A DNA stretch of 64,000 nt from contig DFFU01000008.1 in assembly GCA_002372315.1 (NCBI GenBank), forward strand, positions 12,014 to 76,013. The letters run 5' to 3'. Shown here one piece after another: positions 42,609-43,526 of this stretch (positions are counted from its first letter, which is position 1; every line of letters begins with the position of its first letter). The stretch is from Alphaproteobacteria bacterium UBA3768. Its GTDB lineage: Bacteria; Pseudomonadota; Alphaproteobacteria; CAAHEQ01; UBA3637. The position numbers and the translations under genes were made by a program. The notes under the pieces are model-generated. The model saw nothing but the letters and a program-made list of their open reading frames with translations. It had not been told where the DNA came from and ran no database searches.

Positions 42609-42857
42609 TTACCCTTTCCTCCCATAATTGTTTATTAATGAACTATCCCCAGTATGACACAAATCAACGATTAAATCAATATATTTTTTTGTCTTTAAAA
42701 ACTTTTTGTCTTTGATGACTCAAACATCAATAAAATCAATATAAAAATAGTAAAATAAATGACTTTAAGACACTCTTTTACAGGATGATTTTTCAAGCTT
42801 AGTCACAATCGTTCTATTAAATAAACAAATTTTAACCACTCAAAAGAAAGGAAAAAT

Positions 42858-43481
42858 ATGGAAGTTTATGGTTATATTCGTGTCAGCTCCAACAAACAAA
42901 CAGTGGCACATCAACACTTTGAAATTCAAAAATTTGCTAATTTAAATCACCTCAATGTTGATAAATGGATTGAAGAAACTATCAGTAGTCGTAAAGCACT
43001 CAATAAAAGAAAGCTCGGACACCTACTCAAAAACCTTCACTCAGGCGATATTTTAATTACCACTGAAATATCACGTCTCGGTCGTTCACTGCTTGAAGTG
43101 ATGCACATTTTGGAAACTTGCCTTAATAAAAACTGTCAAGTATGGACAATTAAAGAAAACTATCGTCTTGGCAATGATATTCAATCCAAAGTGATGGCAT
43201 TCGCTTTTGGTATCAGTGCTGAAATAGAGCGACAACTGATTTCACAAAGGACAAAAGCAGCCCTTGAAAATGTGAAAGCCAGTGGTAAAAAGTTGGGACG
43301 TCCATTTTCTGCTCAATCTAAAAAGCTGAAACTGACGAAAAATACGCGTAAAATCCAAAAACTTTTAAACGCAGGCGTGAGCAAAAATAAAATTTCCCAA
43401 ATCATGGGTGTTCAAAACGCCACCCTCAGACGCTTTCTGAATAGAATGAAAGGTAAAACAAATCCAAAACTTGTACAGTGA
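42858..43481 (+). CDS. Small serine recombinase (resolvase/invertase family) with C-terminal HTH
   Basis: Catalytic-serine motif GYIRVSSNKQ at the N-terminus, resolvase core, and a C-terminal HTH (ISQIMGVQNATLRRFL). RBS AAAGGAAAAA. Confidence 0.85.
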   Translation: MEVYGYIRVSSNKQTVAHQHFEIQKFANLNHLNVDKWIEETISSRKALNKRKLGHLLKNLHSGDILITTEISRLGRSLLEVMHILETCLNKNCQVWTIKENYRLGNDIQSKVMAFAFGISAEIERQLISQRTKAALENVKASGKKLGRPFSAQSKKLKLTKNTRKIQKLLNAGVSKNKISQIMGVQNATLRRFLNRMKGKTNPKLVQ

Positions 43482-43526
43482 TGACTGTTTTAAAGCAAAA
43501 TTGTTCAAAAAAGTATTTATTTTATT

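Follow-up and report, generated by a model that had tools for sequence, protein, structure and literature searches.

What does a small serine recombinase do when its gene lies between a pilin-like gene and the edge of a genomic island? The question is raised by a 64,000-nucleotide stretch of contig DFFU01000008.1 from Alphaproteobacteria bacterium UBA3768 (the window), in which a 207-residue recombinase is encoded head to head with a gene for a pilin-like protein, pilin 2. The region at 42609–43526 comprises the recombinase open reading frame (ORF), the 249-bp spacer to pilin 2, and 45 bp past the stop codon. A first-pass annotation of this region had considered two roles for the enzyme, DNA inversion that varies the pilin and mobility of the surrounding island. 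The evidence gathered here favors inversion. The recombinase belongs to the Mpi family of DNA invertases and probably sits beside its own invertible promoter element, with which it would switch the pilin-like gene and an adjoining GT41-family glycosyltransferase gene ON and OFF. Four kinds of evidence carry this reading, namely family membership, conservation of the sites and of the promoter geometry over about 54 loci, the occurrence of both orientations in nature, and one exact flip in a relative.

The recombinase and its recombination sites

The recombinase begins with MEVYGYIRVSSNKQ and matches the Pfam Resolvase domain (PF00239) over residues 3–145 with an E-value of 3.4e-32. The NCBIfam profile NF009949, "master DNA invertase Mpi family serine-type recombinase", gives 283.4 bits, above the curated equivalog cutoff of 272, and aligns residues 3–199 with profile positions 2–198 of 203. 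When the protein is aligned to Gin and gamma-delta resolvase, the catalytic residues Arg8 and Ser10 (GYIRVSS), Arg73 and Arg76 (RLGR), and Glu124/Arg125 are all present. The first-pass annotation had called the enzyme a recombinase of the resolvase/invertase type and had named inactivated catalytic Ser or Arg residues among the observations that would speak against its reading; the description holds, and Arg8, Ser10, Arg73, and Arg76 are intact. A 22-member family alignment contains long invariant blocks, and every invariant residue is kept in the window protein. Ser72 takes the place of the Asp in the DRLGR motif of Gin and the resolvases, as it does throughout the subfamily, and LGRP at residues 146–149 aligns with the minor-groove motif GGRP of Gin.

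The overall build is that of a small serine recombinase, with a catalytic domain followed by a GR motif and a short helix-turn-helix (HTH) within a length of about 180–210 residues. The C-terminal HTH falls below Pfam significance in the window protein, and many close homologues have PF02796 or PF13936 on record. The large C-terminal domain of integrase-type enzymes (PF07508, PF13408) is not matched in Pfam by the 207 residues. Gin (4m6f) is found at an E-value of 1.2e-9, and the classical invertases are distant relatives. Homologues number in the thousands, at about 75% identity and about 199 residues, and are almost all from uncultured gut Alphaproteobacteria such as Candidatus Enterousia. 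Many metagenome-assembled genomes (MAGs) of gut Alphaproteobacteria carry two to three copies, and one homologue (P0094) bears the NCBI name of the Mpi-family master DNA invertase. In two of the related loci, a large serine recombinase gene (Resolvase, Recombinase, and Zn_ribbon domains, about 535 residues) lies directly downstream of the small invertase gene (L085, 1045–2661; L113, 2170 onward).

The divergent spacer between the recombinase gene and pilin 2 has a G+C content of 25.3%. It contains the direct repeats TTTTTGTCTTT, at 42686 and 42703, and AAATCAATAT, at 42673 and 42733; repeated 10-mers are as numerous in only 0.3% of 2000 dinucleotide-preserving shuffles, so the short direct repeats of the AT-rich spacer that had been described earlier are non-random by this measure. 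Inverted repeats are harder to see. Generic searches, both near the gene and across all 64 kb, gave nothing convincing at the spacer, because the true core is too short for them, and no long repeat of the hix/gix type was found there.

The sites emerge from comparison with about 110 related loci, for which 80 upstream regions (160 nt before the start codon) were printed and compared. A motif, ATCGTTCTATTAAA, lies 26–73 nt before the ATG in nearly all of the 80, mostly at about 45–50 nt, and at 42808–42821 in the window. A second motif, AAACCAACGAT, occurs 120–147 bp further upstream in 54–56 loci, with the window version AAATCAACGAT at 42661–42671. These mark the recombinase-proximal and distal sites (IRR and IRL, Table 1), which in the window are 146 bp apart, inverted, and share only the 7-bp core AACGATT/AATCGTT. 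A core of 7 bp is too short to recognize in a single sequence and becomes visible through its conservation over at least 54 loci. The earlier remark that convincing inverted repeats are missing gives way to this pair, and the search for recognition sites that had been proposed as a check yields two inverted sites with a putative 2-bp crossover beside the recombinase gene, with no second pair of the motifs in the 64-kb window and none at the island ends.

The crossover dinucleotide is provisionally placed at AA/TT, because both sites are imperfectly dyad-symmetric about AA or TT and because the distal site of the variant members L081 and L067 is a perfect palindrome, ACACAAACG-AA-CGTTTGTGT. Within the segment lies another copy of the TTGATTTTAT motif, which may be an accessory binding site; inspection by eye finds comparable internal copies in related invertible elements (invertons). 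The core of the proximal site is polymorphic within one species (L096–L105), where about 50 nt before the recombinase start 4 contigs carry AATCGTTC and 6 carry AATGGTTC, all in a uniform orientation.

Orientation classes and promoter geometry

The interiors of the segments fall into two reverse-complement classes, with about 41 loci in orientation A and about 14, including the window, in orientation B. Single pairs behave accordingly. The segments of L048 and L059 agree at 98% as reverse complements versus 55% directly, next to a right flank that is 98–100% identical, and those of L016 and L041 agree at 75% versus 56%, next to a left flank that is 96–100% identical. The window segment compared with that of L008 gives 77% as the reverse complement versus 62% directly. 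An exact flip is seen around recombinase P0105, which is 74% identical to the window enzyme. Four contigs (L106, L107, L108, and L110) are in one state and two (L111 and L112) in the other; the 132 nt between the cores are an exact reverse complement with 0 mismatches, and the flanks are identical over 611/611 positions on the left and 700/700 on the right. The P0105 contigs with opposite states come from different samples. Assemblies also tend to break at this place, as the contig runs out within 400 bp before the recombinase gene in 12 of 79 genome loci and within 400 bp after it in 1. Several contig ends coincide with a recombination site, and L007 and L039 stop exactly at the proximal one. 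For Mpi-type inversion of short promoter segments, both states are thus seen in relatives, and the window element is recorded in one orientation; its own copy would probably still flip.

The consequence of inversion for transcription can be read from the junctions. The ON junction (B state) was rebuilt in silico for 54 loci, and a −10 hexamer was accepted when it lay at a spacer of 16–18 nt, kept A2 and T6, and matched at 4 or more of 6 positions. On the strand of the upstream divergent gene, the rebuilt junctions contain an A-tract, the −35 hexamer TTGATT (TTG in 100% of the 54 loci), a spacer of 16–18 nt, and a TATAAT-like hexamer. The spacer contains the recombination core, and the TATAAT-like hexamer lies outside the segment. 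A −10-like hexamer at the right distance is present at 74% of ON junctions; for OFF junctions the figure is 0%, and for random controls 11%. Given this distribution between the two states, the promoter appears to be split by the recombination site.

The minus strand of the window reads TTGATT, 17 nt, CATACT, about 35 nt, GGGAGG, and then the ATG of the pilin-like gene. The direct repeats of the spacer are part of this arrangement, the first AAATCAATAT copy being the −35 hexamer itself and the two TTTTTGTCTTT copies the A-tract. Since the candidate promoter TTGATT-N17-CATACT is assembled toward pilin 2, the sequenced state is predicted to be ON, with the pilin-like gene and the GT41 gene expressed.

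A mechanism can be proposed on this basis. Dimers of the invertase would bind the two imperfect dyad sites centered on AA and TT, break the DNA at the central dinucleotide, and rejoin the strands after rotating them, which would flip the 144-bp segment. The segment would carry the A-tract and the −35 hexamer, and the matching −10 hexamer would stay fixed beyond the distal site, before the divergent cargo genes. In the orientation found in the window, the two hexamers would stand together on the minus strand and the pilin-like and GT41 genes would be transcribed. In the opposite orientation, the −35 hexamer would point toward the recombinase gene with no −10 at the right distance, and the cargo would be OFF.

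Table 1. Coordinates of the recombinase, the predicted switch, its cargo, and the island features in the window
Feature	Position	Strand	Remarks
Serine recombinase gene (Mpi-family DNA invertase, 207 aa)	42858..43481	+	ORF, Pfam and NCBIfam profile matches
Recombinase-proximal site IRR	42799..42826	.	conserved ATCG-TT-CTATTAAAT; core AATCGTT 42807-42813; putative crossover TT 42812-42813
Distal site IRL	42653..42680	.	AAATC-AA-CGATT vs family AAACC-AA-CGAT; core AACGATT 42666-42672; putative crossover AA 42666-42667
Predicted invertible segment, 144 bp between crossover dinucleotides	42668..42811	.	orientation classes, flipped homologues, exact flip in a relative
Candidate −35 hexamer TTGATT	42674..42679	-	inside the invertible segment
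Candidate −10 hexamer CATACT	42651..42656	-	fixed outside the segment, 17 nt from −35 in the present orientation
A-tract, UP-element-like (TTTTTGTCTTT twice, i.e., AAAGACAAAAA twice on the minus strand)	42686..42713	-	just upstream of −35; family consensus GGAAAAAATATGTTGATT
Internal second copy of TTGATTTTAT motif (second AAATCAATAT)	42726..42739	-	60 bp from the terminal copy
Window element junctions, present state	ACACAAATCAACGATTAAATCAATAT and GTCACAATCGTTCTATTAAAT		as assembled
Window element junctions, flipped state	..ACACAAATCAACGATTGTGACTAAGC.. and ..TATTGATTTAATCGTTCTATTAAATAAAC..		predicted; second also written ATATTGATTTAATCGTTCTATTAAAT
Ribosome-binding site GGGAGG of pilin-like gene	42618-42623	-	sequence
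Cargo gene 1, pilin-like protein (pilin 2), 271 aa	41793..42608	-	prepilin-type N-terminus; Cys-rich C-terminal part with internal repeat
Cargo gene 2, GT41-family glycosyltransferase with tetratricopeptide repeats (TPR)	40204..41784	-	8 nt downstream of pilin-like gene
Intact tRNA-Leu	37229-37315		left island bound
135-aa ORF beside tRNA-Leu	37367-37771	+	DUF6538 sub-threshold, E 3e-4

Alternative explanations and known systems

Several observations weigh against a working switch in the window itself. The crossover was placed from dyad symmetry alone, with an inverted core of just 7 bp in common. A C-to-T change affects the distal site at 42664, where 98% of the 54 loci have C. The window promoter is a weak match, 8/12, and a generic sigma-70 scan (threshold 9) did not list TTGATT-N17-CATACT. 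All three assemblies of the element (the window, L001, and L002) are in the ON orientation, and a flipped copy was not found. Scans of a metagenome collection with the flipped left junction and with the orientation-independent right junction of the window element gave no match; because both came back empty, the collection appears not to contain the organism. In the species with recombinase P0078, 10/10 contigs from different samples share one orientation, which argues that some switches are strongly biased or inactive. With one orientation, the C-to-T change, the 8/12 promoter, and the 10/10 relative taken together, a locked or strongly biased switch is a real possibility. The stricter version, a relic that flips very rarely or no longer, with the pilin-like operon fixed ON, draws on the uniform assemblies, the altered distal site, and the uniform relative, and is nevertheless unlikely. 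The recombinase ORF is intact with all invariant family residues, the 7-bp core and the proximal site of the window are canonical, and the closest relatives, L003 and L082, also deviate singly in the core (CAAT for CGAT). A consensus assembly, moreover, shows only the majority orientation. The role of a mobility enzyme, an integrase or excisionase of the approximately 6.3-kb tRNA-Leu island that replaced a decayed tyrosine integrase, is very improbable. It would account for the recombinase gene lying 42 nt from a pseudo-tRNA-Leu repeat, a linkage that recurs in L082 and L004 in other chromosomal contexts, for the possible integrase remnant beside the intact tRNA-Leu (an ORF with a sub-threshold DUF6538 match), and for an island G+C content of 25–33% against about 40–45% nearby. 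Neither site motif, however, is present at the island ends, nor at any other place in the 64 kb. The sites enclose a 144-bp segment next to the gene, an arrangement found also in about 54 other loci, most of them outside any tRNA or island context, and the enzyme has the architecture of an invertase of about 200 residues without the C-terminal domain of large serine integrases. Direct repeats at the 3' end of a tRNA are a signature of tyrosine integrases, which also counts against a serine recombinase as the island enzyme. The earlier suggestion of a surviving island-mobility function is not supported on these grounds, which favor a 207-residue invertase whose two sites both lie within 150 bp beside its own gene. 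Features of an island or phage integrase are likewise absent, as the protein has 207 residues, the island repeats are derived from tRNA-Leu, and the sites are not at the ends.

A less remote alternative, though still doubtful, is a trans-acting "master" invertase that serves several genomic invertons, with the adjacent element as one target of many. The family name and the NF009949 match speak for it, and cross-reaction between copies is plausible, since all sites of the family share one consensus. A minority type of recombinase (P0099/L020; L086–L095) has no adjacent inverton, with a tRNA gene and the degenerate half-site ATCATTCTGTTAAA upstream of it, and a complete orphan inverton lies 2.2 kb away before a YadA-type adhesin gene (L087, 215–372), so action in trans is possible. 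Set against this are the single site pair in the 64-kb window and a survey of site pairs across the fetched loci (about 1.6 Mb), in which 73 of 75 pairs directly adjoin a recombinase gene; these loci are regions around recombinase genes, from which distant targets would escape. By this count, the usual unit is one enzyme with one switch. The identical recombinase of the minority type (L086–L095/L020) occurs with two different downstream contexts.

The cis-acting, Mpi-family switch may also be mobile as a unit. Some loci are mosaics in which identical cargo flanks adjoin different segments or recombinases (L016/L041, L016/L030, L106/L109), and identical recombinases and right flanks are combined with different segments and cargo (among L016/L030/L041, L106/L109, and L048/L059). 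One 98%-identical cassette stands before different genes in two species (L048/L059). The mosaics suggest exchange between copies at the sites. A tentative extension, possible but short of probable, is that the invertase and its 120–147-bp half-promoter inverton form a portable phase-variation cassette that moves between loci and between species of gut Alphaproteobacteria, with recombination at the sites reshuffling the cargo. Under the same tentative proposal, the cassette would supply the −35 hexamer and the A-tract, and a target gene would need just a half-site and a −10 hexamer. If this were true, a widespread class of invertons would have been missed by repeat-based surveys, the shared repeat being 7 bp.

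Among known systems, the closest likeness is to Mpi of Bacteroides, which belongs to the same NCBIfam family. In both cases, small serine invertases of gut bacteria flip promoter segments of 100–250 bp before genes for surface structures, a role that is predicted for the window enzyme. The Bacteroides Mpi repeat, reportedly given the consensus ARACGTWCGT by Coyne and colleagues in 2003, is not enriched in the window, with 13 one-mismatch matches against 7.6 expected and none at either site. The window site cores, AATCGTTCTA and AATCAACGAT, do not fit this consensus; the variant members L067 and L081 carry AAACGTTCGT, which does, so that a related site core connects the two systems through these variants. 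L081 (CAVGNU010000004.1) is titled Bacteroides fragilis and was not used as a Bacteroides reference. Its recombinase is 71% identical, and the record is probably mis-binned, because the cargo is a YadA-anchor adhesin like those of alphaproteobacterial loci. The differences from Mpi are several. The host is alphaproteobacterial, the shared repeat is 7 bp with the core AATCGTTCTA/AACGATT, the segment is very small, and the promoter is apparently split, with the −35 hexamer inside and the −10 hexamer outside. Genomes here often hold several copies, nearly each coupled to its own inverton, whereas Bacteroides uses one gene for distant targets. According to PMC4747536, a single mpi gene acts on at least 13 distant regions and lies head to head with a tyrosine recombinase gene. 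The 2003 work of Coyne and colleagues on Mpi of Bacteroides fragilis and its invertible polysaccharide promoters is cited in PMC4747536 and PMC10403206.

Resemblance to the classical invertases Hin, Gin, Cin, and Pin, known from the flagellar switch of Salmonella and the tail-fibre switches of phages Mu and P1, extends to the length of about 190–200 residues, the GR(P) motif, the C-terminal HTH, and inverted half-sites around AA/TT. The recombinase gene again lies beside invertible DNA, and a surface appendage would be turned ON or OFF. The sequences are distant, however, and Ser replaces the Asp of DRLGR. Hin/Gin-type systems have 26-bp hix/gix sites, a Fis-bound enhancer, and segments of about 1 kb or longer (1–4 kb in the classical systems), in contrast to 144 bp and 7 shared bp here; no Fis-type enhancer was identified, and no search aimed at one was made. 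The Hin segment holds a whole promoter together with hin, whereas the window recombinase gene is outside the segment. The fimS element of E. coli (FimB/FimE) and the gut invertons known from read-based surveys are similar in that a short invertible element, with a recombinase gene on one side and a fimbrial or adhesin operon on the other, switches expression ON and OFF reversibly. They differ in using tyrosine recombinases, where a serine recombinase is found here, and in having repeats of 9 bp or longer and a complete promoter inside.

Searches of the open-access literature turned up neither an account of such alphaproteobacterial switches nor any split-promoter inverton. Inverton finders that rely on repeats probably miss a 7-bp core. 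An unannotated spacer becomes a defined, testable switch, in which the sites, the segment, and the halves of the promoter are placed to the base. The comparison points to phase variation in uncultured gut Alphaproteobacteria (Candidatus Enterousia and relatives), with pilin-like proteins, autotransporter adhesins, lipoproteins, and at least one DNA methyltransferase as its targets. Mpi-type invertases, so far studied in Bacteroides, would then serve phase variation in Alphaproteobacteria as well. Two features are notable, a promoter seemingly split across a recombination site and an inverted repeat short enough to be overlooked.

Cargo genes and the tRNA-Leu island

The gap of 8 nt between the pilin-like gene and the GT41 gene indicates that the two probably form one operon. 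Pilin 2 and the product of an ORF at 28071 share the prepilin-type N-terminus GRSMIEMLGVLAIIGVLSVGG. The Pfam N_methyl domain is sub-threshold for both (E-values of 0.026 and 0.005), solved pilin structures give no significant match to the pilin-like protein, and a look-up of the exact pilin 2 protein returned no record. The original label "pilin" draws on the N-terminus and is not borne out by the N_methyl score or the structures, and "pilin-like" is the appropriate level of claim because of these two results; the cargo may be a surface pilin, to judge from its sequence. The C-terminus contains two copies of a 50-residue module, YFQTDAEA[IL]AALCD; at the DNA level the copies are 89% identical and spaced by 150 bp (41796–41990, minus-strand gene). 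In the pilin-like relatives from L003 and L082, the Cys-rich C-terminal part is much longer.

Facing the GT41 gene (40204–41784, minus strand) in the island is a plus-strand gene at 37976–40213 for a membrane protein of the sulfatase family, which includes phosphoethanolamine transferases. L082 has GT2 and pyruvyl transferase genes in place of this pair. Given the different enzyme sets, each pilin-like gene seems to travel with its own modification enzymes.

Cargo in other loci consists of YadA-anchor trimeric adhesins, classical autotransporters, lipoproteins, pilin-like proteins, and one Dcm-type methyltransferase. The adhesins, autotransporters, lipoproteins, and pilin-like proteins are surface proteins of the kind typically subject to phase variation, which supports the switch reading. 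Adjacency to a pilin was rejected as a rule of the family, as a pilin-like neighbor is found just in the closest relatives, L001, L003, and L082. The cargo of four loci (L005, L022, L057, and L077) is a recombinase-like protein of 180–190 residues with a partial Resolvase domain, a GRP motif, and HTH_7, without the catalytic Ser region; such proteins could be phase-variable regulators or inhibitors of inversion.

A 14-kb inversion or shufflon between pilin 1 (28071, plus strand) and pilin 2 (42608, minus strand) was considered and rejected. The shared 5' parts are about 80% identical with synonymous differences and contain no site motif. Of the earlier idea that inversion drives pilin variation, the comparative evidence (sites in 54 loci and flips in relatives) retains an ON/OFF switch of expression; the antigenic part falls away with these 5' ends, which are about 80% identical and hold no recombinase site.

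The low-GC island measures about 6.3 kb. The "right direct repeat" reported in the first-pass annotation is real, as 43524–43810 (about 280 bp, diverged) copies the promoter, 3' end, and downstream flank of tRNA-Leu at 37187–37470. Within it, at 43524–43660, lies a decayed tRNA-Leu copy whose 5' half is scrambled and whose 3' end is exact over 21 nt (TTATTCCGGCTTTCCGCACCA), together with a promoter-like TTCAAAATTTGCGCTATAAT. From the recombinase stop codon it is 42 nt to the start of the repeat and about 180 nt to the CCA end. Such a copy beside the recombinase gene is also present in L082 (6470–6590, near-identical, with smpB after the CCA) and in L004 (about 890–1020, recognizable). A piece of tmRNA or a functional small RNA was rejected as its identity, as neither ARAGORN nor Rfam gives a match and an acceptor-stem change in L004 is, by eye, uncompensated. 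Because of this uncompensated change, the pseudo-tRNA is probably an att-type remnant. At the other end, a tyrosine integrase has probably left its N-terminal part in the ORF beside the intact tRNA-Leu, as DUF6538 is a domain typical of integrase N-termini; the decayed tyrosine integrase proposed earlier fits this sub-threshold match. The island repeat is unusually long, including about 150 bp past the tRNA, and conservation is higher in its non-coding flanks than in the 5' half of the tRNA itself. Elsewhere in the window, at 14194–14293, a 27-nt inverted repeat, 85% complementary and with 46 nt between its arms, takes in both of the divergent start codons, 14200 and 14287.

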